Source: an uncultured candidate division Zixibacteria bacterium
Lineage (GTDB): Bacteria > Zixibacteria > MSB-5A5 > GN15 > FEB-12
Direction of reading: 5' to 3'
DNA length: 64,000 bases
NCBI GenBank assembly: GCA_963806185.1
Contig: CAWDXE010000004.1
Span: forward strand, 160,001-224,000
The notes beneath the pieces were generated by a model. The model was given only the letters and a program-made list of their open reading frames with translations, was not told where the DNA came from and searched no databases. Position 1 is the first letter of the stretch; each line of letters starts with the position of its first letter. A program made the translations under genes and the position numbers. Of this stretch, positions 18,976-35,919 are shown one piece after another.

Positions 18976-18981
18976 GTCGTC

Positions 18982-19719
18982 ATGTCGGAAACTACCGGAA
19001 AAGTCTACCTCGTTCCGACGCCCATTGGCAATCTCGGCGATATGACTCCACGCGCGCTCGAAACTCTCCGTCAGGTCGATTTAGTCGCCTGCGAGGACAC
19101 CCGTACCAGCGGCGGTTTGCTGGCAAAATTCGACATCAAGAAACGGCTGGTCTCCTACCACGAGTTCAACGAACGCTCCCGCGCCGAACAACTGCTCGCC
19201 GTCCTGCAAGAAGGGAAGGACATCGCTGTCGTCACCGACGCCGGCTCGCCCGGCATCTCCGACCCGGCCTATCGCATTGTCCGAATCGCATTGGACAACA
19301 ATATCGAAGTCATGGCGCTTCCCGGTCCCAACGCCGTCATCCCGGCCCTGACCGCCTCCGGACTCCCCACCGATCGGTTCTTCTTCGAGGGCTTTTTGCC
19401 CCACAAATCCGGTGCCCGCACCCGACGGCTGGAGCGACTGCATGATTTCGAACACACGATCATCTTCTACGAATCCCCCTACCGCGTCCACAAGTCGCTT
19501 AAAGCCATTCTGGAAGTCATGGGCGATCGTCCCGCCTGCCTCGCCCGCGAAATCAGCAAGAAATTCGAGCAGTACTATCGCGGCACTGTCAGTCAAATCC
19601 TGAAACAGATCGAGGGCCGCACGATCAAGGGCGAGGTCGTCCTGGTGATCGCCGGCAGCAAATTGGCCGCAGCCGCTGAGTCGGAAGAAGTCGACAGCGA
19701 GGAAGAGGACGACGAATGA
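18982..19719 (+). CDS. rsmI: 16S rRNA (cytidine1402-2'-O)-methyltransferase
   Basis: VPTPIGNLGD, CEDTR, DAGSPGISDP, YESPYR, REISKKFE. Confidence 0.95.
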   Translation: MSETTGKVYLVPTPIGNLGDMTPRALETLRQVDLVACEDTRTSGGLLAKFDIKKRLVSYHEFNERSRAEQLLAVLQEGKDIAVVTDAGSPGISDPAYRIVRIALDNNIEVMALPGPNAVIPALTASGLPTDRFFFEGFLPHKSGARTRRLERLHDFEHTIIFYESPYRVHKSLKAILEVMGDRPACLAREISKKFEQYYRGTVSQILKQIEGRTIKGEVVLVIAGSKLAAAAESEEVDSEEEDDE

Positions 19720-20633
19720 TCGCCTCCGACTCGCGCCCCATTTACCCCTTCGACTGGCTCCTCATCGGCTACTGCCTGATCATGATTGCCTTCATCCTGG
19801 CCTTTGGTCGGCCGCTCACCCCATATGGCAACGAACTCGCCGCCTATGCCTCTATTGCCGGCATTGCCGCCCTGATCGTGAAGTATGTCGATCAGGAGCG
19901 GGGGAGAGGCTGGAAGATCCTCCGCTTCCTGTACCCAATGCTCTTTTTCGCCCCGCTCTACAGCCTGACCGGTGGCACCATCTTTCTCATCTTTGACCGC
20001 TTTTTCGATCCACAGCTGATCGCCTTCGAACAGGCCATCTTTGGCACCGAGCCGACCCTCTTTATCGACCGTCACCTGCTGCAGCCGATGCTTAACGAAT
20101 TGTTCTCTTTCTGTTATTTCGCCTACTATTTCATGCTGCCGGCGATCGCCCTTCCCATGTTGTTCGCCGAGGAATACGACCTGTTCGGCCGTGCGGTATC
20201 CACCATGACCCTCACCTTTGCACTGTCGTTCCTGCTGTTTTTCCTCTATCCCATAGAGGGCCCCCGCTGGGTCTTCGCCGACCAATATCTGCATCCCGTG
20301 GTTGGCTACATCTTTCGTCCCGCCGTTGAGTGGGTGATTCGCGCCGGTGCCGTCCACGGCGGCGCTATGCCGTCGTCACATACCGCTATCTCGCTGATCG
20401 TTTCGCTCTATCTCCTGAAACGCTTCCGCTGGCTTGGTCGCGCCGCAGCGACCATTACCGCCGGCCTCGCTATCGGTACCTTCTGGGGACGGTTCCATTA
20501 TGTCTCCGACGTTATCGTCGGCGTCGCTATCGCCTTGTTTTCGTACTGGCTGATCGAGAAATATTACCATCTCTGGACCCATAATCCGCGAACGGTGGTT
20601 ACACAAACGCGTATACTAAAACATGTGTCCTGA
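19716..20633 (+). CDS. PAP2-superfamily membrane phosphatase/phosphotransferase
   Basis: Multiple TM segments; AMPSSH and RFHYVSD catalytic motifs. Confidence 0.85.
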   Translation: MIASDSRPIYPFDWLLIGYCLIMIAFILAFGRPLTPYGNELAAYASIAGIAALIVKYVDQERGRGWKILRFLYPMLFFAPLYSLTGGTIFLIFDRFFDPQLIAFEQAIFGTEPTLFIDRHLLQPMLNELFSFCYFAYYFMLPAIALPMLFAEEYDLFGRAVSTMTLTFALSFLLFFLYPIEGPRWVFADQYLHPVVGYIFRPAVEWVIRAGAVHGGAMPSSHTAISLIVSLYLLKRFRWLGRAAATITAGLAIGTFWGRFHYVSDVIVGVAIALFSYWLIEKYYHLWTHNPRTVVTQTRILKHVS

Positions 20634-21441
20634 ACTATTCCACATCGGCCCAATTCCCGTCCGCAGCTTCGGCGTGCTGATGGCTTTATCGTTCCTGTTG
20701 GGCGTACTCTACGTCCAGCGCATCACCAAGCGGGACAAGAAGCCGTTCGAACCCTTCTTCATGATCGCCTACATCATGATCATCGGCGGCGTCGTCGGGG
20801 CCCGGCTCGCTTACGTGCTGCTCCATCTTGATGAATTCTCCGGCCACTGGACCCGCACCTTCAATCCGTTCGGCGAGGGTCAGTTTGGCATCGCCGGCCT
20901 GAATCTGTACGGGGGAGTTGTCCTCGCGTTGATCGGCACCTACATATACTGCCGGTGGAAAAAAATGCCGGTCCTGGAAGCCTTTGATTATTTTGCCCCG
21001 ACGCTGGCGCTTGGCATCGGCATCACCCGCATCGGCTGTTTTCTCAATGGCTGCTGCTTCGGCACACCGACCGATCTCCCCTGGGGTATTCAATTTCCTC
21101 CCGGCTCCATACCGACTTTTGTCTTTGGCGACGCCCATCTCCACCCGGCGCAAATCTACAGCTCGATGTACGGCTTTGGGCTGTTCCTCTTTCTCCATTG
21201 GCTGATGAAACGCCGCGCCTTTCTCGGCCAGCTGGCCGCGGTCACGATGATGGCCGAAGCGGTCTTCCGCTTTGCCATTGAGTACGTCCGCTACTACGAG
21301 GACGCCATGTACTTCGATTTCATGGGCTATCGACCCACCTTCAACCAATTCGTCTCCGTCGCGCTGCTTTTGCTCGGCCTGGGCATCTATCTTGTCCAGC
21401 GTCGCCGCGGACAACTCCCCTTGGTCTCTCACAAAAAGTGA
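20623..21441 (+). CDS. lgt: Prolipoprotein diacylglyceryl transferase
   Basis: GARLAYV, RIGCFLNGCCFG, HPAQIY, RFAIEYVR. Confidence 0.93.
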   Translation: MCPELFHIGPIPVRSFGVLMALSFLLGVLYVQRITKRDKKPFEPFFMIAYIMIIGGVVGARLAYVLLHLDEFSGHWTRTFNPFGEGQFGIAGLNLYGGVVLALIGTYIYCRWKKMPVLEAFDYFAPTLALGIGITRIGCFLNGCCFGTPTDLPWGIQFPPGSIPTFVFGDAHLHPAQIYSSMYGFGLFLFLHWLMKRRAFLGQLAAVTMMAEAVFRFAIEYVRYYEDAMYFDFMGYRPTFNQFVSVALLLLGLGIYLVQRRRGQLPLVSHKK

Positions 21442-21517
21442 CTGGGCTCAGTTCAAACTTCCGATTGTACCCCACTTTGACGTAGATTCATCCAACGAAA
21501 CTGCTATCAAGGAGGTT

Positions 21518-22336
21518 ATGATGATTCCCAAGTCAGCACAAAAACTACTGCTCGTCCTGCTATTGATTGTCACAGTGATCTTCACCGTCGGTTGCGGCAC
21601 CAATATCCCGTCGGGCCACCGAGCCGTTTTCTATTCCCGCTTCGGCGGCGGCACGGAGTACGGCAAAGTGTACAGCGAGGGTTTTCAATGGCACATGCCC
21701 TGGAACAATTTCATGGTCTATCAAATCCAGTTGCAGGAGCGTAAAGAGTCGCTGACCATGCTCGCCTCCGATGGCGCCACGATTCAGATGGACGTTTCCG
21801 TGCTGTTCCATCCCGATCCCACCAAGCTCGATTCCCTGCAGGGGATGATCGGCCCCAACTACTACGACGTCAAAGTGGCTCCCACCATTCGCGGCGTCGG
21901 CAGGGCTATCGCCGGACGGTTTAAACCCGAAGAGATCTACTCTACCCGCCGCGACGAACTCAACAAGGTCATTTTTGACGAGTGCGTGACGGCGCTCGAG
22001 GGTTCGCACGTCACCATGGAGAACCTGTTCATTCGCGACGTTAAACTTCCGGAAAAAATCTCCGAAGCGATCAACTTCAAGCTGGCCGCCCAGCAAGAGG
22101 CCCAACGGATGGAGTTTACGATTCAAAAGGAAAAGCTTGAGGCCGATCGCAAACGGATCGAAGCGCAGGGCATTTCCGATTTCCAGAAGATCGTCGCTTC
22201 CGGCGTCACCCCTTCACTCTTGAAATGGAAAGGAATCGAAGCGACTGAAAAGCTGGCGGCCTCGCCGAACTCGAAAATAATCGTCATCGGCAACGGTGAC
22301 AGCCAATTGCCGATCATCCTGGGCGGAGATAAGTAG
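21518..22336 (+). CDS. SPFH/prohibitin family lipoprotein
   Basis: Lipobox TVGC; band-7 domain; EADRKRIEAQG...WKGIEAT tail; AAGGAGG RBS. Confidence 0.88.
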   Translation: MMIPKSAQKLLLVLLLIVTVIFTVGCGTNIPSGHRAVFYSRFGGGTEYGKVYSEGFQWHMPWNNFMVYQIQLQERKESLTMLASDGATIQMDVSVLFHPDPTKLDSLQGMIGPNYYDVKVAPTIRGVGRAIAGRFKPEEIYSTRRDELNKVIFDECVTALEGSHVTMENLFIRDVKLPEKISEAINFKLAAQQEAQRMEFTIQKEKLEADRKRIEAQGISDFQKIVASGVTPSLLKWKGIEATEKLAASPNSKIIVIGNGDSQLPIILGGDK

Positions 22337-22365
22337 CCCCTCGCACCGGTATTTGCGAAGATGAA

Positions 22366-22399
22366 AACGGAGCCGCCTCGCGATCTAAGCGACTCCGTT
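22366..22399. terminator. Possible bidirectional terminator
   Basis: AACGGAG...CTCCGTT imperfect hairpin between convergent genes. Confidence 0.5.
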
Positions 22400-22417
22400 C
22401 TTATTTTCATGAACACG

Positions 22418-23740
22418 CTATTGACAATTGGGTAGCGGGGTGAACGAAATGAAAAGATTGTAAATCAGCTCCGTCAAATCGCCAATATCGATGCCCCCTG
22501 TTACATCGCAATTCGCTTCCTGTTCGCAGCAGAGGGGAGAGAAGGAACCAAACAGGTTGTCGATCAACCTCGTGAGATCGCCGATATCGACGCTAGTATC
22601 GCAATTGACATCTCCGACCTCACCCACACAGCAGGTATCACACTGATCGGCGATTGGCGAACTCGGCCATTCAATTGTCGTCCCACTCGGCGGATTTACC
22701 GGCGGGCCGTCCCAAACACCCGTGCCCCCCATCCAATGTGAACCAGGTTGGCGGATGAAATAACCGCCCAGAAAGAGCCGATTATCAAAGACCTTCACGG
22801 CTTCAATATAGTCGTACGCGAACGCTTCGCTCGCTGGTACATCACGCCAGTTCATGCCGTCCCAGTGGACAACCTGTGTCAGGGTCGGATCTGATGGTGA
22901 CGAAATGTACCCCGCCACCACAAGTCCGCCGGCAAATGCCTCCATGGTGAATATCGGCCCGATGAGAGGAGAGCCTAGCCCCGACCAGCTCAGGCCGTCC
23001 CATGCCGCCACTCGGCCCACACACTGATCTGCAAAAGTTATCCGCCCTCCGGCGATCAACCTGCCGGCGATTTCTGCGAAACAAGCAACCGAACCCCGAA
23101 ATTCCGTGCCTACCATCTGCCACTGGGAACCGTCCCAGCGGCGCACGCCGAAGTCGCCACCGACAAACAGTTCGTCCCCGTACACCGTCAGCGCACTTAC
23201 CATTCCTGAAAATGTGCCGCCAAGCGTCGTCCAGGAGACGCCATCCCACTTCACTACGTAATTCTCCCAAGTTGAGCCGATCTTGAAGTATCCCCCGGCA
23301 ATGAGGTCACCGTGGAAATCTGCAAGCGCGTCCACGGACCCGTCCATATCGGCGGGAAATGGAACAAATCCCGCTCCGTCGAAAGTCACTATGTACCGGT
23401 AGCCCGTTTGCCCTGGGAAATTAAAATACCCCCCCACCGTTAACACCCCGTTATAGCTGGTAATCGATTTGACGCTCACTGCCTCCGGGCCGCCCAGCGG
23501 TTGCCACCCGGATCCCGTCCATTTGGCAAGAGGATTAGGCTGATGTCCAGTGTAGGCTGCCCCGGCGTACAACTCGCCGTTGTGAACGTAATAACAGACC
23601 GTCGTACGCGTCGAATCAAACTGAAGCGCCGACGGCTGAACCAGGGTCGGCTGCGTCCGGCCAGTAACACCAGCCAGGAGCATACAAAGTATGATCACTC
23701 CCCACCAGCCGCTCCGCCATCGTCCCTGCGTTGTTGCCAT
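22418..23740 (-). CDS. Secreted beta-propeller-repeat protein with C-terminal Cys-rich dockerin-like domain
   Basis: Signal peptide; repeated L(I/F)(A/V)GG.F...WDG..W..LG units; duplicated D.N(C)D...DIGDLT.LI.NLF. Confidence 0.8.
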   Translation of the reverse strand: MATTQGRWRSGWWGVIILCMLLAGVTGRTQPTLVQPSALQFDSTRTTVCYYVHNGELYAGAAYTGHQPNPLAKWTGSGWQPLGGPEAVSVKSITSYNGVLTVGGYFNFPGQTGYRYIVTFDGAGFVPFPADMDGSVDALADFHGDLIAGGYFKIGSTWENYVVKWDGVSWTTLGGTFSGMVSALTVYGDELFVGGDFGVRRWDGSQWQMVGTEFRGSVACFAEIAGRLIAGGRITFADQCVGRVAAWDGLSWSGLGSPLIGPIFTMEAFAGGLVVAGYISSPSDPTLTQVVHWDGMNWRDVPASEAFAYDYIEAVKVFDNRLFLGGYFIRQPGSHWMGGTGVWDGPPVNPPSGTTIEWPSSPIADQCDTCCVGEVGDVNCDTSVDIGDLTRLIDNLFGSFSPLCCEQEANCDVTGGIDIGDLTELIYNLFISFTPLPNCQ

Positions 23741-23898
23741 GTTGACTCCTTATCCTTTCGGATTGACCGCCCTGGGTGAGGGGCCGCTCGCCAGTCGACG
23801 GCCAGGTGGTTCCGTGATCTTCGTATACTAAATGTACCACCATCGCAAAATCATGCAAATCATTTGTTGCCGATGGGGTATAGAAGGAATGAAGGCGC

Positions 23899-24609
23899 TC
23901 AAAATGCAATGGTGTTACCGAAGGTAAGATACCGCCCTATCTGCCTCGTGTGTACTTGCTCGTGCCAGAGCGCCCGCCGCACCACTTTGCGTGCCGTCCA
24001 GCGCTCCCCACGTTTCTCCGCTACCATCGTGCTGCCCGCAAGTGTCGACAGAACTGCTGCCGTATGTTCGCGCACCTGCGAAAGCAGCGCAAAGATGTCC
24101 GTTGCCAGTAGTGACCGATCAAACGCCCTGTCCAACCGATCCAGGTACCACCACTCTGCTGTTGCCACGTGTTGCAAAATCCCCCGTATGGTCCCGAATC
24201 TGTCGCCGGGAATCGGTTGATCCAGCCTCTCAGTCATCAGCGGCCTGACCAGCCCGAGCAACTCCGCCCGATACAGGCGCATTAACAGCAGTCCATCGGC
24301 TATCTCGACTTCGGTGAGCGGGCGACGGTCATCTCTGAAGCAAGCGTTGACATAATAGTCATCCCCTGCTATCGAGAATGATTGATGGCGCTCGGCAATT
24401 TCATATTCGACAGGCACATCTTCGGTGATCTCCGTCTCCGTATTTGCTTGAAACGACTGCAACCGCCGGACATGTCGATTCACGCACTCCTCAACCCCAT
24501 CCAACGTTTCCTGCACTGTCGTCCCGCGCGAGTAACAACCGGGATATTCAAAGACCCAGGCCACCCAGTTATTCGGTTCGATATCCTCTATGCCGAGATG
24601 AACGCGCAT
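23899..24609 (-). CDS. HicB-like N-terminal domain fused to DinB-family domain
   Basis: WVAWVFEYPGCYSRGTTVQE (HicB-type); ILQHVATAEWWY and RRALWHEQVH (DinB His ligands). Confidence 0.75.
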   Translation of the reverse strand: MRVHLGIEDIEPNNWVAWVFEYPGCYSRGTTVQETLDGVEECVNRHVRRLQSFQANTETEITEDVPVEYEIAERHQSFSIAGDDYYVNACFRDDRRPLTEVEIADGLLLMRLYRAELLGLVRPLMTERLDQPIPGDRFGTIRGILQHVATAEWWYLDRLDRAFDRSLLATDIFALLSQVREHTAAVLSTLAGSTMVAEKRGERWTARKVVRRALWHEQVHTRQIGRYLTFGNTIAF

Positions 24610-24665
24610 GACAGACTTCCTCGCTGCTTTCAGCATAACCAAGGAAATCCGCCGCCGCAAGCAGG

Positions 24666-25152
24666 GTAGGTCGGGTTCCGGAGCGAGACACGCTCGAGGA
24701 GAAACCCGACAGCGAGACTGCCTTTGTCGGGTGGTCATTGAGATCCTGAATCATGAGAATGATTCAGGATGACGAGGTGGGGAGTTGCAGGTCGGATTCG
24801 GGAGTCTGTCGCAGACAAATGTTGAAGCTCGACACGACGAGCTGCCCCTTTTGCTCCCTCTCCCTTTGGTAGAGGGTCGGGGTGAGGGCCGGGGGGGCTC
24901 AATGAAGAAAGATGGCAAAACGCTTGTCGAATCAAGAGACGTAGGTCGGGAGCTGTAGCTCTCGACGTCAGAAGAAAAAGCGTCAGGTCACACGCTGCAG
25001 GGAGGCGTCGCAGGACCTTGTGGAGTGGGGAGTGCGGTGACGGTCAGGCACGGGGCCTGACCGCACATTTGCATACGCCGGGCTTCGACGAAGTTCACCC
25101 TGAGCCCTTCGACTTACGCTCAGGATAAACTACGCCGAAGGGCTCAGCCCGA
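24666..25152. repeat. Cluster of REP-like palindromic elements
   Basis: GTAGGTCGGG at 24666 and 24941; ATCCTGAATCAT...ATGATTCAGGAT; CCCTCTCCC...GAGGG/GGGGTGAGGG; nested CTGAGCCCTTCG...CGAAGGGCTCAG. Confidence 0.72.
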
Positions 25153-25229
25153 CGATAGAAATCTTAGATTGAGTTTTGCGACACTGTCGCGGGGGGTAAA
25201 GAAGGCACGCCCCGGGACAAGTGCCCCTC

Positions 25230-25598
25230 CTACATGCCTGAGCCGGGGAGCGGCTTGAACAGGCCGACAATTAACCCATCCGGATCCTTGAAGAAGGCCG
25301 ACTGGCCGACGCCGGGAATATCCATTGGCGGCACGACCGTCTGCCCACCGTGCTTCTCAATCTTTGACAGATATGCCGGGATATCATCGACCGCGATGTA
25401 GAACGTCAGGTACGGCGATCCCTTGGGCGCTTTGAAAATGCCGCCATTGATCCCTTGACCGCCGGTGTCAACCACGCCGTAATTCATCGGATTGCCGGCG
25501 TCGATCTTCCAATCAAACACACCCTGATAAAACTTGTGAGCCTTAGCATCGTCGGTTGCGGCGATCTCCCAATGCACAATTGGATTTGCCATTCTCAT
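25230..25598 (-). CDS. VOC/glyoxalase family protein
   Basis: NPIVHWEI...FYQGVFDW, FKDPDG. Confidence 0.88.
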   Translation of the reverse strand: MRMANPIVHWEIAATDDAKAHKFYQGVFDWKIDAGNPMNYGVVDTGGQGINGGIFKAPKGSPYLTFYIAVDDIPAYLSKIEKHGGQTVVPPMDIPGVGQSAFFKDPDGLIVGLFKPLPGSGM

Positions 25599-25769
25599 TT
25601 CCTTTCAGACGCTTGATGGGCACTTGGGCGGACAGGCGGCTATCCGCGTTGTTGAGAGGAAATATATAGTGGATTGTCTGAGTGCACAATCACATTAGTA
25701 TGAATGGGCGGCCCTCGGCCGGTTTGAGCCGACCTTGCCTATCGCATTGTGGCCGCATACATTACAGGC

Positions 25770-28079
25770 ATGGCTGCGCCTCCAAAACTGCGTTCGGATT
25801 TGATTACCGTACCGTCCACAGTCGACCAAGCGACTGTCTATACGATTAAGGATCCGATCACCGGCAAGTACTTTCGTCTGCGCGAACCGGAATTCTGGCT
25901 CATTTCGCAATTCGACGGACAATCTGAGGCGGACGAATTGGCGAAACGATTTCGCGAGCAGTTCGACGCCAACATCGCCGCCGATCAGGTCAATCAGTTT
26001 GTCACGATCCTGGAAGATCTCCTATTCCTGGAGAACACGCACAGCGAGCAGGGAATTTCCCGCCAAGCTTACCGGAACCAGATGGCGCGGTCGCGGCTGT
26101 CCCAGTTGCTCTACATGCCGCTGACCTCATTCGCTCCGGGGCGGATCCTTGATGTGGCAGTGCGGCTGTATCGCCCGCTTCACTCTCGACTCTGGTTTGC
26201 GGTGTCGCTGCTTGGGCTCATCCTCGCGGCATGGGTGCTGGGTGAGAACCGGAGTTCGTTTGCCATCGATCCCCGAACGCTGATTTCATGGAACACTCTC
26301 ATCACCCTGGTGGCGGCAATTTTCATCATGGGAGTGTTTCACGAAATGGCGCACGCCGTGGTTTGTCGTTATTACGGGGGTGACGTGCGACGCATGGGTT
26401 TCTTCCTGCTGTATTTTCAACCCTGCTTCTACTGCGACATTTCCGACGCCTGGCTCTTCCCCAAGCGGAGTCAGCGTCTCCTGGTGACACTCGCCGGACC
26501 GTATTGCCAGGCGTTGTTGACCGGCGCCGCGATCCTGCTGTGGCGAATCACCCAACCGGAGACCTGGATCAATTCGCTGGTCTGGATGACGGCGTTGATC
26601 TCGCTCGTTACGTTGCTATTCAACCTCAATCCTTTGATAAAGCTCGATGGCTATTACCTGTTGTCGGATTGGATGGAGGTCCCCAATCTGCGGCAAAAGG
26701 CATTCCGGTACCTGGGCAATGTCTTTAAACGCTGGGCGCTCGGCTGGCCAATTGAGCGGATTGACGTGACCGCGCGCGAGCGAAGGATATTTCTGATTTA
26801 TGCGGTTCTGGCGCTGATTTATTCGGCATTTCTGATCGGTTACTCGGCAATGTTTCTGGGTAGACTGGTTTTCCTGTACCTCGGCGGAGCGGGATTGCTG
26901 TTGTTGATTGGTGTCGTTCTGTTTATGTTACGACGGGAACTGGGACGCCTGGCCAAAGGGATTTTGCGGCACCTGGGGTATATGAAGACTTTGCTCGCGC
27001 ATCCAATACGTCTGACAGTCTATATCATTCTGACGATTGCGTTGATCGTCGTCTGCTTCATTGTCAAGTTCCCGCATCGAGTCGCCGGTGAGGTGACAGT
27101 CGCTCCGCTGCGCGAGTTCAGTGTAGGCATCAATCAACTTGGCTATCTGGAGAGCACGTACCGGCAGGGGGGAGAACATCCGGAAAACAAATCGTGGCTG
27201 ACAAAGATGGAATCGTCCGATGTCTTGGCGATTGAACTGAAGCCCATGGTCAATGACGGTCAGCACGTTAAGGCGGGAGACACGATTGCGATCGCCGTAT
27301 CCAACCTGATGGCGAAGGACCTCGAGTCTTCAGAGGCCGAATTACAGCGTCTTGAGGGAGAACTCGCGCTTCTGAAGGCGCCACCCAAGCGGGAACGGGT
27401 GGAGGAAGCACGCGCTCTCGTCAACAGTGCCCGCACCGCGCTCGATCAGCGTCAACGCGAATACAAACGCGTACAGCAATTGGTGGACCGTAAGCTGGGT
27501 ACACAGGAACAACTCGAGGGGGCTAAGTCGGCGGTCGACATCGCCGAAGCCGAAATGGCTAATCGAAAGTCGACTCTGGCACTCGTGGAGTCACCGCCCC
27601 GTCCGGAAGAAGAGGCCGTGCTTCAACACGCCATCGCCAAACAACAATCTCAAATCCAATATCTTCGCAGTCAGGCGGCAGCGCAGATTATTGCGGCGCC
27701 GATCGACGGAACGGTGCGTTCCCGATTGATTGACACCAAACTGCTGGTGATCGCGGACGGCGCGACCATTGAAGCGCAGGTACCTGTGACAGATATTGAC
27801 ATCCCACTCGTCTCATTGCGGCAGAAAGTGTCACTCAAGGTGCGCGCGTATCCGTCGATGGTTTTTGAGGGGGAAGTTGCCGCGTTGCCGGAAGTAGGCG
27901 TTGAAAAAGATAAGCAGATGATCTTTCCGGTGACGGCCACGTTCAAAAATGGCAGTGCACTGCTCCAACAGGGGATGAGTGGTTATGCCAAGATCGAAGT
28001 TGGCACGGCGACGCTGGCCGCGCGGTTGTGGCGTAAGTTACGATCCCTCATACGAGTAGAGTTCTGGTCCTGGTGGTAG
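25770..28079 (+). CDS. PqqD/RRE-like-M50 intramembrane metalloprotease-HlyD membrane-fusion protein
   Basis: N-terminal IKDPITGKYFRL...FDG...FVTILED (RRE-like, inferred); HEMAH at 26340-26354 and NLNPLIKLDG; coiled coil, IAAPIDG lipoyl half-motif and GMSGYAKI C-terminus. Confidence 0.88.
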   Translation: MAAPPKLRSDLITVPSTVDQATVYTIKDPITGKYFRLREPEFWLISQFDGQSEADELAKRFREQFDANIAADQVNQFVTILEDLLFLENTHSEQGISRQAYRNQMARSRLSQLLYMPLTSFAPGRILDVAVRLYRPLHSRLWFAVSLLGLILAAWVLGENRSSFAIDPRTLISWNTLITLVAAIFIMGVFHEMAHAVVCRYYGGDVRRMGFFLLYFQPCFYCDISDAWLFPKRSQRLLVTLAGPYCQALLTGAAILLWRITQPETWINSLVWMTALISLVTLLFNLNPLIKLDGYYLLSDWMEVPNLRQKAFRYLGNVFKRWALGWPIERIDVTARERRIFLIYAVLALIYSAFLIGYSAMFLGRLVFLYLGGAGLLLLIGVVLFMLRRELGRLAKGILRHLGYMKTLLAHPIRLTVYIILTIALIVVCFIVKFPHRVAGEVTVAPLREFSVGINQLGYLESTYRQGGEHPENKSWLTKMESSDVLAIELKPMVNDGQHVKAGDTIAIAVSNLMAKDLESSEAELQRLEGELALLKAPPKRERVEEARALVNSARTALDQRQREYKRVQQLVDRKLGTQEQLEGAKSAVDIAEAEMANRKSTLALVESPPRPEEEAVLQHAIAKQQSQIQYLRSQAAAQIIAAPIDGTVRSRLIDTKLLVIADGATIEAQVPVTDIDIPLVSLRQKVSLKVRAYPSMVFEGEVAALPEVGVEKDKQMIFPVTATFKNGSALLQQGMSGYAKIEVGTATLAARLWRKLRSLIRVEFWSWW

Positions 28080-28248
28080 GCCGGATGTAATAGTCGGCAG
28101 CAGTCGCGCACAGCACCGGCAAGTTTTGCATACCACTTTCACATAATCTCACCACATTTTCGATCAATCGCACTCGAATTTTTTTCCTGTGCGGCAAAGT
28201 TTTCCGATAATACTACCCCTAGATAAACATGGACAATGCTCATTTCTC

Positions 28249-28276
28249 TTGACGTGTGGCGGGCCGCTCGTATTTT
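28249..28276 (+). promoter_or_regulatory. Putative sigma70 promoter of the small peptide gene
   Basis: TTGACG-N16-TATTTT about 100 nt upstream of ATG 28380. Confidence 0.55.
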
Positions 28277-28379
28277 ATGAGTACATGCCTCCGCAGAGGC
28301 AGCACACACATCTGTAAATTACACACACACTCCTCCCGATGGGCGGGAGGGAGAGTACGTACATGAAGGAGGTGAATGA

Positions 28380-28457
28380 ATGAAAGACTACAAACTAACC
28401 GTAGAAGTCCTGGAGGAGCGCATCGCTCCGGGTATGAGCCTGGGCGGCCAGGGTTGA
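28380..28457 (+). CDS. Unannotated 25-aa peptide MKDYKLTVEVLEERIAPGMSLGGQG, putative precursor
   Basis: AAGGAGGTGA Shine-Dalgarno, ATG...TGA, own promoter and terminator; LEERIAP leader-like motif; immediately downstream of the RRE-M50-HlyD gene. Confidence 0.78.
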   Translation: MKDYKLTVEVLEERIAPGMSLGGQG

Positions 28458-28481
28458 TCTGACGGTTTCGTCTGATGAATC

Positions 28482-28505
28482 AAAGGGCAGGTTATCCTGC
28501 CCTTT
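28482..28505. terminator. Intrinsic terminator after the peptide gene, overlapping the stop codon of the convergent kinase-TPR gene
   Basis: AAAGGGCAGG-TTAT-CCTGCCCTTT perfect 10-bp stem followed by CCTTTTT. Confidence 0.8.
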
Positions 28506-31476
28506 CCTTTTTCGCCAAGATCGTTCCCAGCCGCCCAATCATCGCCGCCAATCGTTGTATGTGTCGCGTCTTTTGAAAACTGATCTGCGTCGCCTGATCA
28601 GTACCAGTCAACATCTGCTTGCTCAATTCGAGCGCCTTTCGGCAAAGCTGATAGCACGTTTCGTAGTCACTCTGACCAAAGAGAATCTCCGCACGCAGGA
28701 TCGACGACGATATCATTTCCGGCAGCAAGCCAGTATCGCGGGCCTCGCCGGACGCCCGGATCAGATACTCCGACGCCGGTTCGAGTTCACCAAGCCGTAA
28801 TTTCAATTCGCCCAACGAAAGCAGCGAGCGCGTAGAATCAATATGGCGCGGTGCGTTTTTCTCAGCGTTGATGAAAGAAGTCAGTCGGGGCGCAAGCGCT
28901 GTTGCCTCCGACAGGTCGTGTCGAGCGAGCGCCGATTCCATCTTTTCTATCGCAAGCGTCGAGCCAAAGTCCTTTACCTGGAGTTGTTCCGCGAGGGAGT
29001 ACGCTTCGGATTCTTCTGCCGGGGTGAAGTCGATCCTGGCTAGCGTGGTAAGGAGCGCCAATCGAGCGGGCGCCAGGCCAACGATTTCCTTTTCTTCCAT
29101 GGCGGCGCGGAGCAAGGCGGCGGCTTCAGCCGGCCGACCGAGCAGATACTGCAGTTCAGCTCGCAGTCTATAGAGGTATGCACGGATCTCTCCGTCGGAA
29201 ATCCCATTCAAGTGTCCTAGTGCGTCGTCGGCGGCTTGCAGCGCCTCGCGAATCTGACCCATGCGCACTAGAACCTGTCCCGTTTGCGTCGTAAAGGCTG
29301 CGAGGTGTGAGAGGTCACTCAAATCGAGCGCGAGACGGACGCCTTCCTTAAGATAGGCGAGGCAATCGGACAACCTGGCTGACCGGAGCATGACCAGTCC
29401 GAGGTTGTCGAGATTGAAGAGAATTTCCTTCTGATTGCCGATTTCGCGATTGAGCGCCAGCGATTCGGTGAGGTATTCGAGTGCTTCCCGGTGATATCCC
29501 TGATTATGAGCGAGGTAGCCCAGATTATTCAGCGTGCGGGCGATTTCACCTCTATCCCCGAGTTCACGTTTCAGTTTTAACGAGAGAACCATGACGGCCA
29601 GGGCGCGATCGGCGTTCCCGAGGAAGTAATATACGACGCCGAGATTCGTTACGGTAGAGGCGACATCGCGCTTGAGAGCGAGGCGGCGCTGAACGTGCAA
29701 GGCTCGACGGTAGTAACTGAGCGCCTTGCGGAAGTCGCCGGTCATCGAATGGACATTACCGAGATTGTTCGTTACATGCGATATCTCAAGACTGTTGCCC
29801 AGTCGTGTGAATATTTCCAGAGCCTTTTCGAGCGCGGTCACACCCGGCTGAAAGAGCCGTTTTGCCTTGTAGATATCGCCGAGCAGGTTGTAGGCGCGCG
29901 CGATCAGATAGTCGGGTCCGGAGTTGTTTCCGGTGATTTCCAAAAAAGCATGTTCGGCAAGCTCCGATTCGCCGGCGTCTTTGTGGATTTCGCCATGCTC
30001 GAGGAAAAGCCGGCAGACGGCCTCTGGTGATCGAGTCATGCGGCCATAGTCGATGCAGAAGTGGAGCAGCGCCTGCGCCTCGGCAAATTGATGCTTCTCT
30101 CGATACTGTTTAACCGCAGCCAGGGCACAACGTTCAGCGGATGCAAAATCACCGGTCTGGATATAGAGGCGCGCGGCATCATCGAAGGTTGATTGGCTCT
30201 CGCGATCGGCGGCCAGCTTACGTGATAGGCGCTTTATCGTTGTAACCGTCAACATGCCGCTGAACAAGTAGGAGGACAGCATGTCGGCATGGTCCGTGAG
30301 TTCATCGGGTGTCAACTGGGCACCGGCCGCGAGGATGACGGCGTTTCGTACGTCCGACTTGCGCCTTGCGAGAACTTGTCCGCGCCAGGCCTGGCTGACC
30401 TGCCGGCGAATGATTGACGGCCAGTACACGCCATTCGGAAAACGGAAGGAGGCGTTGTCGTAGGTGAGCATTCCGCGGCGCCAGTTGGCGGTGAGAATCA
30501 GTCTGGCGCTGGCAAGGCTTTCACCGGAGAGCATGAGGAAGCGTTTCATATCCCGGGCCGAGCTTGAGATGGGGCGTTCGCTGAGAGCCGCGACTGTCGA
30601 TTGTGCGGGGATCATGTGCTTTGGCTGCAGAGCCCGTTCGTAGGGATAGGACACACCGAGCTGACGCAGGCGGCTGCAAATCTCCCACCCGGATTGCGGT
30701 CGGTGGGCGGGGTCTTTGGCCATCAGTCTGCGCTACCAGATCGGACAGTTCTTCGCTCACGTCGGCTCGCAATGACGACAGCGGCGACGGATTGTCGAGA
30801 CGCACGCGGCTGGAGACCTCGACAGGGTCGGCGCCGTCCTTAAGAAATGGATGCGAACCGGATAGCATCATGTAGGCAGTGACACCCAGAGCAAAGAGAT
30901 CGGACTGATAGGAAGTATGGTTTCGGCCAGTGTTTCCGGCGCTATGTAGCCGATGGTGCCGAGACCGGCGCGAGTATCGTCTTCACTCGGTTTGCGGCCG
31001 AGGGAGAAGTCGGAGAATTTGACCCAGTGCAGATGACCGTCGTTGAGGTGTCGCCAGTCGACAGGCAGGAAGACGTTTTGCGGTTTGAAGTCGCCGTGAA
31101 TGATTCCTGCAGCGCGCAGGAACTCAAGGTCGAGTGCGATGGCCGAAATGATCGAACAGGCGACGTCTACGTCATCGAACGGCCGATCGAGTCCAGCGTC
31201 GGACCGGGGCAGAGTTCGAGTAACAGATAGTTGCCGGCAGTTCTCATGTTCCAGGATTCGTACCAGGCCGGGAAAGGCGTAAGACCGCCGATGAGCGTTT
31301 GTTCGCGGAGAGCGAGATGGTGAATTTCGGGCGGGAGAGTGTCGGAAATCGAGCGGATACTTAAGCGCCGCGTCACGATTCAGGTGAGGCGCGAAGACCC
31401 GCACAACTTCTGCCGTCCCCCCGCGACCGAGCCGGTCCTTGATTTGAAACCGGGACTGATCGAACGTCCTGTTCAT
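28492..31476 (-). CDS. Hanks-type Ser/Thr protein kinase with long C-terminal TPR array (several frameshifts in 30720-31350)
   Basis: LGRGGTAEV, AALK, IHGDFKPQN, DFSLG, GTIGYIAPE, HPF, AKDPAHRP across frames; TPR repeats (NNLGNVHSMTGDFRKALSYY) in ORF 28492-30723. Confidence 0.85.
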
Positions 31477-31484
31477 AATTCCTA

Positions 31485-33304
31485 TTACGCCTGACGTAGT
31501 CTGGTGAACCCGCGGCAGAATCAGGCGGAAGGTCGTGCCTTCGACCGGCGATCGACGAAACTTCCAGCTTTGCCGCCGTGCTGTTCGACAATCTTCCGGC
31601 AGTTGTACAAGCCGAGCCCGTGACCACCCTTCTTGGTGGTGAAGTGCAGGGTGAAGATCCGATCGAGTACTTCCTTGGGCATGCCGCAACCGTTGTCGGA
31701 ATCTCGACGAGATTTGATCGGCGTGCTGGTCATGGCGCCGGCGTTGATCGAAATCTGCCGGTGGAACTTCCTGATTCGGGTCGGGCAACTGCGCTGACCC
31801 GGTCGCCGATGGCGTCGGCGGCGTTATTGAGCAGGTTGATCATGCACCTGCTGTATCTGGCCGACGTCGATTTCGGCGGTTGGCAATTCGGGCGGCAGAT
31901 TGATGTTGAAATTGCACCAGCTTGAAACTCGGCTGGATGCGCAGCGAGAAACAGCAGGTCATCGATGAGGTGCTTGAGTCGTAGCTGACGAATTCCGACT
32001 CTTGGCGCGAGAAGTCCATCAGGCTGTCGACGAACCGTTTGATCTTGAAGATATTCTCGACGATCGACTTGCTGTTGAACTTGACCTTCTCGGGTTGCCG
32101 CGATCGAGATTGATCGACAGCAGCTCAGCGTTGTTGGATATGATCGACAGGAAGTTATTCAGCTCGTGGGCGACCGACGCTGCCATTTCGCCTCGCGCGA
32201 CCAGTTTCTCGGACAGTATGACGTACTGCTCCATGGTGACTTCTTCGGTGATGTCCTGGACCGTCATGACGAGGCCGTCGTGTCCGTTGGGCAGCGCCTG
32301 CAGCGGCGAAATTTTGAGCGACAGGACCTTCTCGAGATAGCCGGTGTTGTGGAAGTACCGGCGGTCGGCAAATTCCTGATTGGTGTGAGAACGGTGTTTA
32401 GCATTCGCTGCCACCGCGGGCGTTGCTGTTCGGGGAGCAGATCGACAAAGACGGTCGGTTTCGGTTGTCGCCGATCAGGGTTATTTTGTCGCGATTGAGA
32501 TCGAAGATTTCAAGGGCAATCGGATTAATGGTGGCAATCCGTCCGTGGATATCAATAACGACGATGCCGACCGGTGACTTGACCACGACCGATTCGTTGT
32601 ACTTCTCCATGCGCAGCAGTGATTCATATATGTGGGCGTTGTGCAGGGCGTTGGAAACCAACTGGGCATACAGTTCGAACAGATACAAGATCGGACTTCA
32701 GAAACATCTTCGCCTGGTTGGAGTTGTCCAGATAGATGACGCCGATGACTTGTTCCCTGGACGTGCAGCGGGACGCACATGATCGAGCGCAAGATGCAGT
32801 TCGACGACGGATTTCTGATGGGCGTACCGATCGTCCGCCATGGCGTCGGACGTGTACACCGGCTTACCGGTCCGGGCGACCTGGCTGGTAATCGACGACG
32901 AGATGCGGAAGTCCTCTTCCATCATCTGTTCTTTGCAGAGATTGTACGCCGACTTCATCTGCAATTCGCCGTCGGCGTCCAGCAGCATGATGAGGCCGCG
33001 CTCGGCCTGCATCAGTTCGAATGGCCTTCTCCATCACCAGGCGAAGAACATCGTCGAGCACGAGCGACGAGTTGATCGCAATCGAGATCTCAAGTAGGGC
33101 TTTGAGATCGGCTGAACGCCGCGTTGCCCCGTCGCCGTCTTCTTCCACGCGCGGGTTGGTCTGAGCGACCTTGCTGAGCGTAGCTTCCAGGTCGGCAAAC
33201 ATCTCCATAGCCAACTTGCCGGTATCTTCGACATCCATCGGTGACGGCCGATTGGTCGGAAGGGCCAGAGGATCGAGTGTAGAGCGGCTCTGCTGTATAG
33301 ACAT
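31485..33304 (-). CDS. GAF-PAS sensor histidine kinase (multiple frameshifts)
   Basis: ALLEISIAINSSLVLDDVL, GAF (RSIMCVPL), PAS (PVGIVVID), H-box GEMAASVAHELNN, DNGCGM, GHGLGL in successive frames; 3' end approximate. Confidence 0.82.
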
Positions 33305-33338
33305 ACGCTTTTCCCGTTACATATGTGCCTGTCAGTCT

Positions 33339-33365
33339 TTATCGGAACAAGTGCCAAAAGCCTGA
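33339..33365 (-). promoter_or_regulatory. Putative sigma28-type promoter for the HK-kinase pair
   Basis: Minus strand TCAG-N15-TCCGATAA, 35 nt upstream of the ATG. Confidence 0.5.
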
Positions 33366-33527
33366 ATGGGACAGACCCATATTGTTGGTGCGAAAGCATA
33401 TCCGCGTGCAGACAGCCGACCACCGACAGATTCTGTCCGTGGTCGGGCAAAAACCGATATAAGTTATTGGCGGATAAATTCTTAACGATAACTCGTGCGG
33501 TCGGTCGTTTCGTCGTTCGCAAATGCC

Positions 33528-35279
33528 TCAGAATTCATGCTGAAAGCGAACGTAAATCTTAGGATCGGCATTGTCCGACCGATCCAACCGACGGGCCAGA
33601 CTGATTCTAAACGAGTCTTCGATGTAGGCCGCGACGCCTATGGAATGCTTCACCTCGGCATCGTGGAATTTGGTGTCATTGGCAATCTGGCCGACGTCCC
33701 AGAGCAGCGAAAGGGCCAGGCCGGCATGTCGGAATCGAACCCGGTACTCCGCCGAAGTCATCCAGAAGCGCGTACCCATGTATTCTTTGTGGTCATACCC
33801 GTGAAGGGTGCCGAGCCCGCCAAGGAAGAATCGCTTGAACATCGGCAGGTAGCCGTCGCTATTGCCATACCGTCCGGCCATCAGTAACGTGGTATACCGC
33901 GACACTACTTGGTATCTGCGGGCTGAAAGCGTATACCGGCTGTAGTCCCAATTGGAGTCGAAATCCTTGACCGACCATTCGGCCTGAGCCTCGACAGCCC
34001 ATGCCGAGGAATCGAATGGCGCTTTGGCATACCGTGAATCATATATTGCCGTGAGTCGAATCACCGCATTGGTGCCGGTATCGATCTCTGGAATGCTCGA
34101 CCGGCGGAACGAGGAGTCCACCGTGGACCAGTTTTCGCGGAATACCTTGCCGCCTCCGAACAATGACCAGAGGTTTCGGTGAGCGTCGAGCCAGTTGGCG
34201 GCATCGTAACGAAACGCCAATTCGCCGCTTAACCTGGGTATTGGTCGGCTGCGGAAAAAGATCTCCCCAGACGTCGTTTCGTAGTAATCACGAAAATCCT
34301 CTGTCACCAGGAGGGCGAACGCGGAATTCTCCGCGTCATCGATCATCCAGTCATCTTCCGAAGCCAACCAGTGGCCGTAGGTTCCTCCGACCGTCACAGC
34401 CGGATGCCGCAAAAGCGTCTGTTCTGCGAGAGCTTTCCATCGCAGCCGTTCGGAGGCAAAGGCGTAACCGATTTCGAGGTGTAATCTGGGCAGGGTTGAA
34501 TCGGTATCATTGAAGCCGGCCGCAATCAGCGGTGTGGCACCGTCGACGCGATTGTAAATGAACCGGGGGTAGATCTCGAATTCCTTCTGTCGAATGACCA
34601 AACTGTGGCGCCGGGACTTTCGGTCCTGAGAAGAGACGACCTCGCCGTATACGGAGGCCTCCGGCTTGATGTCTACGCGTCCGAACAGAGAGACAGCGTC
34701 TCCGCGCACCTTGGCTCCCTCGCCGATATGAATGTCGCCGAGTATCGAAATGACATCCTTGCCGACTTCACCCAGCACGTCGATTCGTCCGGTGGTGGTA
34801 AAGATCATCCCGCGCACGAAATCATTCTCAGGTACGACCATGGCCCGGCTGTTCCCGATGCGATTGCCGCGGCGAATACGGGTGATATCCGGAACCGTGT
34901 CGGTACGAGTGGAAAAATCGACACAGATTGAGTCGCGCGCCGTGGTGACTCGGGCCGCGGATATGCGGTCAAGAGCATAAACGGAATCACCGAAGTGAAG
35001 GCCGGCCGAGTCGAACAGGAGTTTCTCGCCGGCGTAAATGGCGCCATTTCGTTCTCGCACAGTTTCACGAGGATACGTCTGGTTTTGTGGTCCGGAAGGA
35101 GTATGCACGACAATTCCAAATGCCGTCGCCGTTCGACAGAGGCTGATATAGTCACGAGTCAGCGTCGGGCGGGTATATTCTTGATATACCGGCTGGGTGG
35201 AGTCGGTCTGGGCGATCGAAATCGCGGCGCCACTCAGAGTCAGAAGCGATGTTAGCAGCAAGCTGGACAGGCGAATCAT
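33528..35279 (-). CDS. Omp85/BamA-TamA-like outer membrane protein with non-POTRA N-terminus
   Basis: Signal peptide from MIRLSSLLL; YNRVDG; FFLGGLGTLHGY loop; terminal Phe. Confidence 0.75.
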   Translation of the reverse strand: MIRLSSLLLTSLLTLSGAAISIAQTDSTQPVYQEYTRPTLTRDYISLCRTATAFGIVVHTPSGPQNQTYPRETVRERNGAIYAGEKLLFDSAGLHFGDSVYALDRISAARVTTARDSICVDFSTRTDTVPDITRIRRGNRIGNSRAMVVPENDFVRGMIFTTTGRIDVLGEVGKDVISILGDIHIGEGAKVRGDAVSLFGRVDIKPEASVYGEVVSSQDRKSRRHSLVIRQKEFEIYPRFIYNRVDGATPLIAAGFNDTDSTLPRLHLEIGYAFASERLRWKALAEQTLLRHPAVTVGGTYGHWLASEDDWMIDDAENSAFALLVTEDFRDYYETTSGEIFFRSRPIPRLSGELAFRYDAANWLDAHRNLWSLFGGGKVFRENWSTVDSSFRRSSIPEIDTGTNAVIRLTAIYDSRYAKAPFDSSAWAVEAQAEWSVKDFDSNWDYSRYTLSARRYQVVSRYTTLLMAGRYGNSDGYLPMFKRFFLGGLGTLHGYDHKEYMGTRFWMTSAEYRVRFRHAGLALSLLWDVGQIANDTKFHDAEVKHSIGVAAYIEDSFRISLARRLDRSDNADPKIYVRFQHEF

Positions 35280-35325
35280 TCGTGCCACTCCTTGTCGGAT
35301 AGTCAAGCGCTTCCCCCGCCTTCTG

Positions 35326-35919
35326 TCAAGTTTGTTGGCGGCCGTCGCCGGATCTGCCAAGAATCCGATCCTGGTAGTCTTTAAAAGCCTGGCGGTGGGA
35401 GGCGAAGGCAATGTCGGTCGGAAGTTCATCAAAACCGAAAAAACGGACTTCCATGGCGTCGTCGCCCGCCCGCAATTCGCCGCCGGCGATATCACCCAGA
35501 TAGAGCATGAGCACGGCATTGGTACGCGGGTCATCCTGACCGACATACACCTCAAAAAAGGCCTTCAGGGTCACCTGCAATCCCGTTTCTTCTTTCAGTT
35601 CACGCACGGCCGTTTGGGACGGATGTTCGCGCCATTCCATGAAACCCGCGGGGATACACCACCAGCCAATACGCGGCGGGTGGGCTCGTTTCACGAGCAG
35701 GATACGGTTGTCCTGAACAATAATCACGCCGGCGGCCGGGACCGGATTCTGATAGTAGATGTACCCGCACCCCGGCTGTTCACAGATCAGGCGTGAATGG
35801 CCGTCGAGCTGTTGTTCTACGAGCGGCTCGGCGCAAAAAGGGCAGAAGCGATAGCCGCAATGGTGCTCCTTTCGGGCGAACAGCTTTTCGGCGTCGAAAT
35901 CGGCGTGAGGATCATTCAT
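35326..35919 (-). CDS. NUDIX hydrolase with N-terminal zinc ribbon
   Basis: FCPFC...C...C, YQNP, GFMEWRE...AVRELKEETGL. Confidence 0.9.
   Translation of the reverse strand: MNDPHADFDAEKLFARKEHHCGYRFCPFCAEPLVEQQLDGHSRLICEQPGCGYIYYQNPVPAAGVIIVQDNRILLVKRAHPPRIGWWCIPAGFMEWREHPSQTAVRELKEETGLQVTLKAFFEVYVGQDDPRTNAVLMLYLGDIAGGELRAGDDAMEVRFFGFDELPTDIAFASHRQAFKDYQDRILGRSGDGRQQT

Follow-up and report, generated by a model that had tools for sequence, protein, structure and literature searches.

The closest characterised relative of the protease studied here serves a RiPP pathway, that of the daptides. In this pathway the precursors MpaA/DapA are accompanied by MpaP/DapP, an intramembrane site-2 protease fused to an RRE, and the leader carries the motif ELExMEAP with proteolysis after its proline, as the accessible part of the paper describes (Ren et al. 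2023, PMC10036551); the preliminary description of our locus gave this motif correctly. EpeP, the M50 protease of the epipeptides, is thought to cleave as well as export its peptide, according to the excerpt available (PMC10885120). M50-HlyD fusions occur together with GAF-HlyD and OEP genes in a secondary SecA_DEAD module, and the accessible text proposes the M50 part as an inner-membrane pore (Kamneva, Poudel and Ward 2015, PMC4452313). LEPR-XLL, a further motif of interest, is an N-terminal domain of giant proteins in the available section of a preprint (bioRxiv 10.64898/2026.03.19.712371).

We analysed a 64,000-nucleotide stretch of DNA (the window) from an uncultured Zixibacteria bacterium, in which a very small gene adjoins such a fusion. 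To our knowledge, nearly all cases of peptide signalling via cytoplasmic receptors come from Gram-positive bacteria. If the reading preferred below is true, the locus would encode a peptide signalling circuit in two-membrane bacteria, so far undescribed. Our literature search turned up no publication on either the peptide or the module, and supplements of related papers could list such proteins; the main texts of PMC7470986 and PMC12710340 do not mention M50 or HlyD, and the first 300,000 characters of PMC8277102 contain nothing relevant.

Features of the locus

25770-28079, + strand: RRE-M50-HlyD fusion, 769 aa, single copy (Pfam, NCBIfam, orthologues)
25770-26018, + strand: RRE (PqqD-like) domain as modelled, aa 1-83 (AlphaFold2 model, Foldseek, orthologues)
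26340-26354, + strand: HExxH zinc motif, HEMAH, aa 191-195, with H191, E192 and H195 (orthologue alignment)
26622-26651, + strand: NPxxxxDG motif, NLNPLIKLDG, aa 285-294, with the third zinc ligand D293 (orthologue alignment)
27012-28079, + strand: last transmembrane helix (aa 415-433) and periplasmic HlyD-type adaptor (hydropathy, family matches)
28249-28276, + strand: sigma70-like promoter of the peptide gene (consensus scan, conservation of the -35 box)
28366-28375, + strand: Shine-Dalgarno sequence, 10 nt, AAGGAGGTGA, 4 nt 5' of the ATG (read from the sequence)
28380-28457, + strand: precursor peptide ORF, 25 aa including leader and core, stop codon at the end
28380-28430, + strand: precursor leader, aa 1-17, ending in LEERIAP (conservation in 41 peptides)
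28431-28457, + strand: predicted mature core, aa 18-25 (8 residues), and stop codon (cut site by analogy with daptides)
28482-28513, + strand: intrinsic terminator, a 10-pair hairpin (28482-28505) followed by a T run
28492-31476, - strand: convergent cytoplasmic Ser/Thr kinase-TPR, about 1000 aa (Pfam Pkinase and TPR on an orthologue)
31492-33247, - strand: GAF-PAS histidine kinase directly upstream of the kinase-TPR, with several frame breaks (neighbour annotation)

The small ORF, its Shine-Dalgarno sequence, the 10-bp terminator and the 769-aa gene with its motifs are all located where the preliminary description placed them. The terminator hairpin contains the stop codon of the convergent kinase-TPR gene. 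The sigma70-like promoter also named in that description is present and its -35 box is kept in at least 90% of 12 aligned relatives, but the scan match by itself is at chance level (2 found versus 2.0 expected in shuffles).

The 25-codon ORF is a real, conserved gene. A chance reading frame or non-coding element might be suspected since the peptide has no match in Pfam or NCBIfam and its exact sequence is absent from the protein collection searched. What takes the ORF beyond chance is a set of 41 distinct homologous peptides, all preceded by a Shine-Dalgarno sequence (a match of 9-10 nt in most), together with variation concentrated at codon position 3, where the mean minor-allele fraction is 0.49 versus 0.18 at position 1 and 0.11 at position 2. 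A profile built from these 41 sequences, which were drawn from the same related genomes, matched the window ORF with E 1.3e-16 in its own genome, the next match having E 2.9. A profile search gave 76 matches among 1.84 billion representatives, all of them small proteins (at most 183 aa). With an RNA contig that carries an in-frame variant of the peptide, its changes mostly synonymous, the chance reading is refuted as far as sequence allows, and we give it practically no weight.

Conservation differs along the peptide. Leader residues L6, E9, L11 and E12 are invariant in the 41 peptides, and Y4, A16 and P17 are present in at least 90%. The core varies from 6 to 17 residues, with 7 or 8 in 20 of the 41, and contains a nearly invariant Ser and Gly-Gly pair across the three families represented.

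In public RNA data, contigs from five studies cover the peptide ORF. Four contigs start at 28294-28300, which is only a weak hint for the promoter at 28249-28276. There was no long piece elsewhere within 18600-38400, in runs that had been selected for holding part of 27600-29000. Because of this selection, and because the contigs are uninformative on absence, strand, level or start, genes were not ranked by RNA.

The fusion protein and its convergent neighbour

The fusion is likely a leader peptidase and export adaptor. Pfam assigned M50 with E 6e-10, and matches to HlyD and PqqD were weak. The best NCBIfam match was NF041824 (daptide_HExxH), covering aa 24-389 with 229.6 bits, below the cut-off of 300; the epipeptide family NF058609 reached only 46 bits (cut-off 225). 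The zinc site is intact, with H191, E192, H195, N285, P288 and D293 invariant in 63/63 aligned orthologues. The adaptor part matched RND_mfp (E 6e-18) and PRK03598 (E 1e-16), and the hairpin and barrel Pfam families were found on homologues of this part.

The N-terminus, which had been claimed to be RRE-like, indeed models as an RRE. We make this assignment because the AlphaFold2 model (mean pLDDT 87.6) has the topology of three strands followed by three helices, because Foldseek retrieved TbiB1 (5v1u/5v1v), PqqD (5sxy) and lasso B1 (6jx3) at probability 0.99-1.0 and E 0.07-0.3, with nothing at E ≤0.001, and because orthologues exceed the PF05402 cut-off. A sequence search of the PDB with an RRE-M50 profile gave one weak match, AsbB (E 0.039). 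An RRE profile detected no second RRE in this genome, and no other PqqD-family protein was found to co-occur with the module, for which the Pfam model is insensitive. In agreement with the preliminary description, the peptide locus has no ABC ATPase, TolC or tailoring enzyme as a neighbour.

The earlier pairing of peptide and fusion is supported but was incomplete, as it overlooked a third gene, the convergent kinase-TPR, which is likely the receptor of the peptide. Its catalytic residues and the Asn ladder of the TPR part are conserved, and five orthologues tested have no convincing transmembrane helix. A model of the TPR part matches LGN/Pins (TM up to 0.90) and Rap proteins, with Rap ranking below LGN. 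The predicted fold is that of extended-peptide binders, an LGN-like match being generic for long TPR arrays.

In this assembly the kinase-TPR reading frame is shifted near 30690-30920. Fragments of the histidine kinase are still, for the most part, 42-80% identical to orthologues, and splits also affect 11 of 66 binned test loci of this genome (neighbouring bins not merged), so that assembly error is the more likely cause of the breaks in both genes and a pseudogene reading is disfavoured. The histidine kinase, shortened at its N-terminus in G012, G027 and G108, is a possible downstream partner of the kinase-TPR, though it is not co-lost. An Omp85-like gene and a two-component system lie in the operon neighbouring the peptide locus. 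Neither the histidine kinase nor the Omp85-like gene is counted as a core part of the module, because both are kept in 5/5 module-negative genomes.

Shared presence and loss

One and the same set of 53 among 61 relatives contains the peptide (E <1e-6), the full-length fusion (E ≤2e-99) and the kinase-TPR (E <1e-40). Across the phylum (240 genomes), 194 have both peptide and protease, 36 neither, 8 the protease only and 2 the peptide only. The small ORF is conserved beside orthologous M50-HlyD genes. Both peptide-only genomes have the C-terminal part of the fusion beside the peptide. These counts are not independent events because the genomes are related. In five genomes (G012, G027, G033, G057 and G094) the flanking block is contiguous and peptide and fusion are missing; the kinase-TPR is also missing in the first four, and G094 retains a kinase domain without TPR. 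Eight genomes of family f4 have the fusion far from the peptide and retain both, with the peptide still beside the kinase-TPR.

Of the two partners, the kinase-TPR is the more constant neighbour of the peptide gene: in 52/53 genomes its end is within 400 nt of the peptide, whereas the fusion adjoins the peptide in 44/53. At the chosen threshold the TPR part of the kinase scored in 175/240 genomes, which is an undercount, since G205, G215 and G203 have a full kinase-TPR beside the peptide though below that threshold. In genus g59 (G107-G110) no kinase-TPR match was found in any of the four genomes, and the genus retains the fusion and 4-7 peptide copies, which in G107 and G108 are in tandem and have a new core. 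The kinase is therefore not required for the peptide-fusion pair. Some families have other readers beside the peptide, e.g. TPR-sigma54 activators.

We also searched for further components. Among 41 loci, no conserved DUF-RRE protein, oxidoreductase, aminotransferase or methyltransferase neighbour was found, and apart from the kinase no tailoring enzyme co-occurred with the peptide. The Opp/Dpp binding protein is the re-import component in Gram-positive systems; the corresponding PF00496 was detected in only 12/61 genomes and not in G000. An OPT-family transporter, which might substitute for it, is present in 57/61 genomes and is also kept in module-negative ones. SecA occurs once each in G000, G014 and G039, and G052 has one plus a sub-cut-off match; a second, partial SecA match in G108 lies far from the peptide locus. 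Locus neighbours included no second SecA_DEAD protein or GAF-HlyD, and no TolC was linked to the peptide locus.

A single-sequence scan of genome contigs gave no relative; an alignment-based scan did. Outside the phylum, in 22 of 27 loci with homologous proteases the same leader stands before unrelated cores, with 0 matches in five shuffles. This suggests that the core is cargo, and because the shared leader precedes unrelated cores beside homologous proteases, we infer, like the preliminary description, that the peptide is likely cut after Pro17. Some loci in other phyla carry FemX-like enzymes. The leader marks a precursor family, so far without a name, that extends over several uncultured phyla and is in part accompanied by possible tailoring enzymes, and it thereby gives a handle for RiPP mining.

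Proposed pathway and alternatives

Our preferred reading, to which we give about an even chance of being correct as a whole, is that the peptide gives rise to a signal of 7-8 residues that carries no modification, is cut and leaves the cell without help from an ATPase, and is recognised by the kinase-TPR. The RRE would bind the leader, and the precursor is very probably the substrate of the RRE-M50 part. The zinc protease domain would then cut after Pro17, which by analogy with daptides we regard with good confidence, and the core would probably stay unmodified. We lean towards ATPase-free exit of the core by way of the fused HlyD adaptor and a TolC from another locus, and to a similar degree towards its re-entry into the cell and recognition by the TPR groove of the cytoplasmic Ser/Thr kinase. 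Onward transfer of the kinase signal to the adjacent histidine kinase and sigma54 regulator would be a doubtful last step. This pathway is supported by the joint occurrence and joint loss of the three genes and the RRE fold and intact zinc site, by the daptide precedent, the leader in other phyla and the TPR Asn ladder and fold, and by the lack of a further co-occurring PqqD-family protein or second RRE, the OPT transporter in 57/61 genomes and the EpeP precedent. Several observations count against it: the peptide-fusion pair of g59, the scarcity of Opp/Dpp, the retention of the OPT transporter in module-negative genomes, the lack of a linked TolC and of an evident energy source, and a full kinase-TPR in G097 (620 contigs) without a peptide or protease match. 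In addition, cores are similar across families, a poor fit to strain-specific signalling, and many precursors have an optional variable tail C-terminal to the core Gln, for which we know of no trimming enzyme.

An export-coupled checkpoint would explain part of these difficulties. The precursor or released leader would act on the kinase-TPR inside the producer until the fusion removes the precursor once an envelope channel is assembled, so that the peptide reports envelope or secretion state and not cell density. A cytoplasmic reader needs no re-import, in line with the few Opp/Dpp proteins and an OPT importer that is not co-lost, and low core diversity, tolerated tails and a strong, constitutive-looking promoter and Shine-Dalgarno sequence would be accounted for, as would the Omp85-like gene and two-component system nearby. 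Against it, G107 and G108 keep arrays of the peptide, with a new core, in the absence of the kinase-TPR, and the unrelated cores of other phyla look like cargo; we regard this explanation as unlikely.

The nearly invariant core Ser, the intact catalytic residues of a kinase that travels with the peptide, the RiPP role of the closest characterised protease and the FemX-like enzymes elsewhere would also fit a minimal RiPP, in which the kinase phosphorylates this Ser, or enzymes encoded elsewhere modify the core, before leader removal and product export by RRE-M50. Families f15 and f16, however, do not always have Ser at this position, and one core lacks both Ser and Thr, and still a full kinase-TPR adjoins the peptide. 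Moreover, the kinase itself lacks an RRE, a second RRE protein does not co-occur as far as the insensitive Pfam model goes, and the kinase domain that G094 keeps after loss of peptide and TPR points to another substrate; we consider a minimal RiPP improbable. Finally, the product might act on an outside target or membrane receptor, the kinase-TPR then being no more than a regulator linked to the locus. The arrays in g59 that lack a kinase-TPR, the TPR-sigma54 activators and the outward traffic implied by the fused adaptor agree with this. Against it, five genomes lost the TPR part along with peptide and fusion, which holds for f4 too despite the lack of linkage there, and neutral Gly-rich 7-8-mers make poor antimicrobials or chelators, so we find an outside target distinctly improbable.

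Beyond the signalling reading, RRE-M50-HlyD might constitute a general ATPase-free route of diderms, in which the LExRIAP leader is cut off and cargo passed to TolC, and which in Zixibacteria serves phylum-wide quorum sensing via the kinase-TPR. We offer this extension tentatively, as rather more likely wrong than right. If it is true, the LExRIAP leader would be the substrate signal of M50-HlyD modules, and Zixibacteria would be the first two-membrane phylum with an RRNPP-like circuit that has kinase output.

Comparison with described systems

As in daptides, an RRE is fused N-terminally to an M50 protease, the leader ends in L-E-x-x-x-A-P and a cut is expected after Pro, so far as the accessible daptide text allows comparison. 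The inner leader residues differ despite this spacing, the peptide does not match NF041808, and the fusion stays below the NF041824 cut-off. The fusion also has a C-terminal HlyD adaptor, the host is diderm, the predicted core has 7-8 residues and a kinase-TPR is the partner, Dap tailoring enzymes and an ABC transporter are missing from the locus, and 0/41 peptides end in Thr, whereas daptides have an invariant C-terminal Thr. With EpeX/EpeP (YydF/YydH), in the part of that work available, the locus shares an M50 protease for a ribosomal peptide; it differs in its leader and in lacking a radical SAM epimerase. LEPR-XLL, as excerpted, has a similar L-E-x-R spacing, and kinship with the peptide is a lead only: neither LEPR-XLL nor another family matched the peptide, and the 76 profile matches include no giant protein.

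The RRNPP systems (Rap-Phr, Rgg-SHP, AimR-AimP) likewise pair a short gene for the precursor with a neighbouring gene for a cytoplasmic TPR protein, some of their peptides are matured by a membrane protease, and Rap structures are among the fold matches of our TPR model. Family searches gave no Rap, Rgg, NprR, PlcR, PrgX or AimR match. Here the host is diderm, the leader would be RRE-guided instead of a Sec or ABC signal, and there are a dedicated protease-adaptor, a kinase output and an Opp system mostly not found. The SecA_DEAD module, in its accessible description, shares an M50-HlyD fusion without ABC transporter or ATPase, and that description names no RRE, substrate or leader (PMC4452313); in our case there is one fusion gene, GAF-HlyD and TolC are missing from the locus, and the genome encodes a single SecA. 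Since 2015 M50-HlyD fusions have been on record with no substrate assigned, and the locus described here supplies a candidate short substrate, a candidate cut site and a candidate receptor.

Peptide gene and fusion

Both genes of the locus were present as the preliminary description had them: a gene combining an RRE-like N-terminus, an M50 protease and an HlyD adaptor, and a 25-codon ORF accompanied by an SD, a promoter-like site and a 10-pair terminator.

25770-28079, + strand: RRE-M50-HlyD fusion, 769 aa (sequence, family models, predicted structure)
28380-28457, + strand: peptide ORF, 25 codons (sequence; SD, promoter-like site and 10-pair terminator alongside)

A profile search found no second ORF of this kind in the genome. 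The proposed conservation beside orthologous M50-HlyD genes was borne out by 41 distinct peptide homologues, each next to an orthologous gene and all with an SD match, mostly of 9-10 nt. In the leader (residues 1-17, ending in LEERIAP), four residues are invariant and Tyr, Ala and Pro nearly so, although this conservation is partly built in, as the collecting pattern itself required some of these residues. The third codon position is about three to four times more variable than positions 1 and 2, and the -35 box of the peptide promoter is conserved in 12 aligned relatives. RNA contigs from 6 runs in 5 studies match 28294-28485, the matched part differing by no more than one mismatch or a gap of 2 nt. 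They attest the sequence in RNA libraries but carry no information on strand or level; a second contig within one run is an in-frame variant whose changes are mostly synonymous. Judged from its sequence, the 25-codon ORF is a real gene.

Second, unlinked precursor copies occur at L113:9754-9825, L114:9757-9825, L143:9636-9779 and L179:1435-1584 (genomes G056, G022, G086 and G187), three of the four having divergent cores.

Residues 24-389 of the fusion scored 229.6 bits against the daptide leader peptidase model, below its cut-off of 300, and the zinc ligands and catalytic Glu are invariant among 63 orthologues. The RRE fold suggested earlier for the N-terminal domain agrees with an AlphaFold2 model in which residues 12-83 form three strands and three helices; this part matches the RREs of TbiB1, PqqD and lasso B1 with probabilities near 1, though no E-value reaches 0.001. 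The remainder of the model matches SpoIVFB as well as the site-2 protease of M. jannaschii (probability near 1, again with no E-value reaching 0.001), and the part following the last transmembrane helix is an HlyD-type adaptor. TolC-family genes lie elsewhere in the genome (13 matches in six places). Close homologues of the fusion are labelled Zixibacteria by their sources, so the genome is probably a member of that phylum.

Distribution across the phylum

Of 61 genomes in the order, the same 53 contain peptide, fusion and the convergent kinase-TPR gene (28492-31476, - strand). Among the eight negatives are G012, which is a single contig, and G027, which is 100% complete. The flanking genes are contiguous in the five negatives that were opened, with peptide, fusion and TPR missing; the module-negative genome G094 retains the kinase domain only. 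The peptide lies within 400 nt of kinase-TPR in 52 of the 53 genomes and adjoins the fusion in 44, the rest being one contig break and eight genomes of family f4 with the fusion elsewhere. At the level of the phylum (240 genomes, overlapping with the 61), set differences between tables gave 194 genomes with peptide and protease, 36 with neither, 8 with the protease only and 2 with the peptide only; in both of the latter, the C-terminal part of the fusion adjoins the peptide. A contig end cuts into kinase-TPR on the peptide side in G088, G092 and G132. Because the genomes are related, fewer independent events lie behind these counts than the figures suggest.

Two cases speak against a strict trio. 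Genus g59 lacks kinase-TPR and keeps the fusion with 4-7 copies of the peptide, which stand in tandem and have a new core in both of the genomes inspected; in G097, kinase-TPR is present and no match for peptide or fusion was found. The g59 arrays comprise seven (G108, L139:11609-13348) and four (G107, L140:11542-12656) tandem precursor genes at the site of the lost kinase-TPR.

Leader and predicted cleavage site

Of the best 80 loci, the 27 with at most 40% identity and titles naming other phyla (L255-L285) were examined. In 22 of them, one to four small ORFs begin with the same leader and continue into unrelated cores; five shuffles gave no match. The peptide profile had 76 matches among 1.84 billion proteins, all of at most 183 aa. 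Some of them are precursors built of repeated leader-core cassettes, and one of the 76 scores weakly against the daptide precursor model (18.4 bits against a cut-off of 25). On this sequence evidence, the leader is a portable tag. Since conservation of the peptide stops at the leader-terminal Pro and daptides are cut at the corresponding Pro of their leader (excerpted text of PMC10036551), cleavage is predicted after Pro17.

The multi-cassette precursors P0139, P0164, P0174, P0175 and P0196 alternate the same leader with short cores that have an Asn-His-Asn-Glu motif in common; the models searched gave no family name for them, and the literature search likewise found no paper. At four loci from other phyla (L259, L271, L272 and L284), a FemX/FemAB-like aminoacyltransferase and an unnamed protein of ~335 aa adjoin the protease, and three of these also have precursors with Gly/His/Lys/Ser-rich cores. 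Such loci possibly represent new RiPP tailoring.

Kinase-TPR and possible roles of the peptide

The product of the convergent gene is a Ser/Thr kinase-TPR protein some 1000 aa long. In many relatives, genes for a GAF-PAS histidine kinase, DUF4390, an Omp85-like protein and a sigma54 regulator precede the gene. In 48 orthologues, the catalytic residues of the kinase are conserved, as is a ladder of Asn residues in the TPR part; hydropathy revealed no convincing transmembrane helix in the five orthologues tested. The TPR model (pLDDT 95.8) matches LGN/Pins, with Rap proteins ranking lower. About eight frame breaks in the kinase-TPR and histidine kinase genes, across window positions 30690-33250, are probably sequencing or assembly errors.

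The N-terminus of the histidine kinase is ~180 aa shorter in three genomes that lost kinase-TPR (L169:12163-13416, L170:6731-7957, L139:10307-11515), with no GAF match in the two shortened proteins scanned; it is about full length in G107, G033, G057 and G094. The shortening may hint at a link of the GAF domain to kinase-TPR. In families f12-f14, TPR-sigma54 activator genes (L294:3489-5822, L296:3812-6172, L153:5369-8221) are neighbours of either the fusion or the peptide gene and are possible alternative readers.

Signalling through kinase-TPR would be the most likely role of the peptide, a reading to which we give about an even chance. The idea that the kinase modifies the core is weakened, because the core Ser is not retained in every family that retains the kinase. 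Consistent with the lack of an adjacent modifying enzyme remarked on earlier, tailoring enzymes are absent from the conserved neighbours at the 41 loci. The PqqD model found no co-distributed protein besides the fusion and the RRE profile no second RRE in the genome, searches that distant RREs can escape. Of 61 genomes, 12 encode Opp/Dpp binding proteins and 57, module-negative ones included, an OPT-family transporter. Re-import of the core is possible but unsupported, and for this reason an export-coupled checkpoint is kept as an unlikely reading of the locus beside signalling through kinase-TPR.

Other features of the window

Two short intergenic stretches upstream of a VOC gene (24847-24892 and 25095-25135) attract matches from many unrelated RNA contigs whose ends are loose; a shared repeat or structured RNA element is the probable explanation. 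Secreted proteins with a Cys-rich dockerin-like C-terminal tail are encoded at 22418-23740, with a weak Dockerin_1 match, and at 39225-40862; such tails are probably typical of Zixibacteria.

Comparison with known systems

The interpretation of the locus as a candidate peptide processing and export system, put forward in the preliminary description, holds. None of the NCBIfam models covers these leaders, two homologous peptides in the protein collection are both unnamed, and no description of the peptide or the module was found in the literature searched, which included few subscription papers. M50-HlyD fusions without an ABC transporter, beside a second SecA, appear in the excerpted text of Kamneva et al. 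(2015; PMC4452313), whose M50-HlyD description there leaves the substrate unnamed; the other parts of the module that it presents are missing from the present locus. EpeP is thought both to cleave and to export its peptide (excerpted text of PMC10885120). The locus is not a daptide cluster, but resembles the leader-peptidase step of daptides coupled to an export adaptor.
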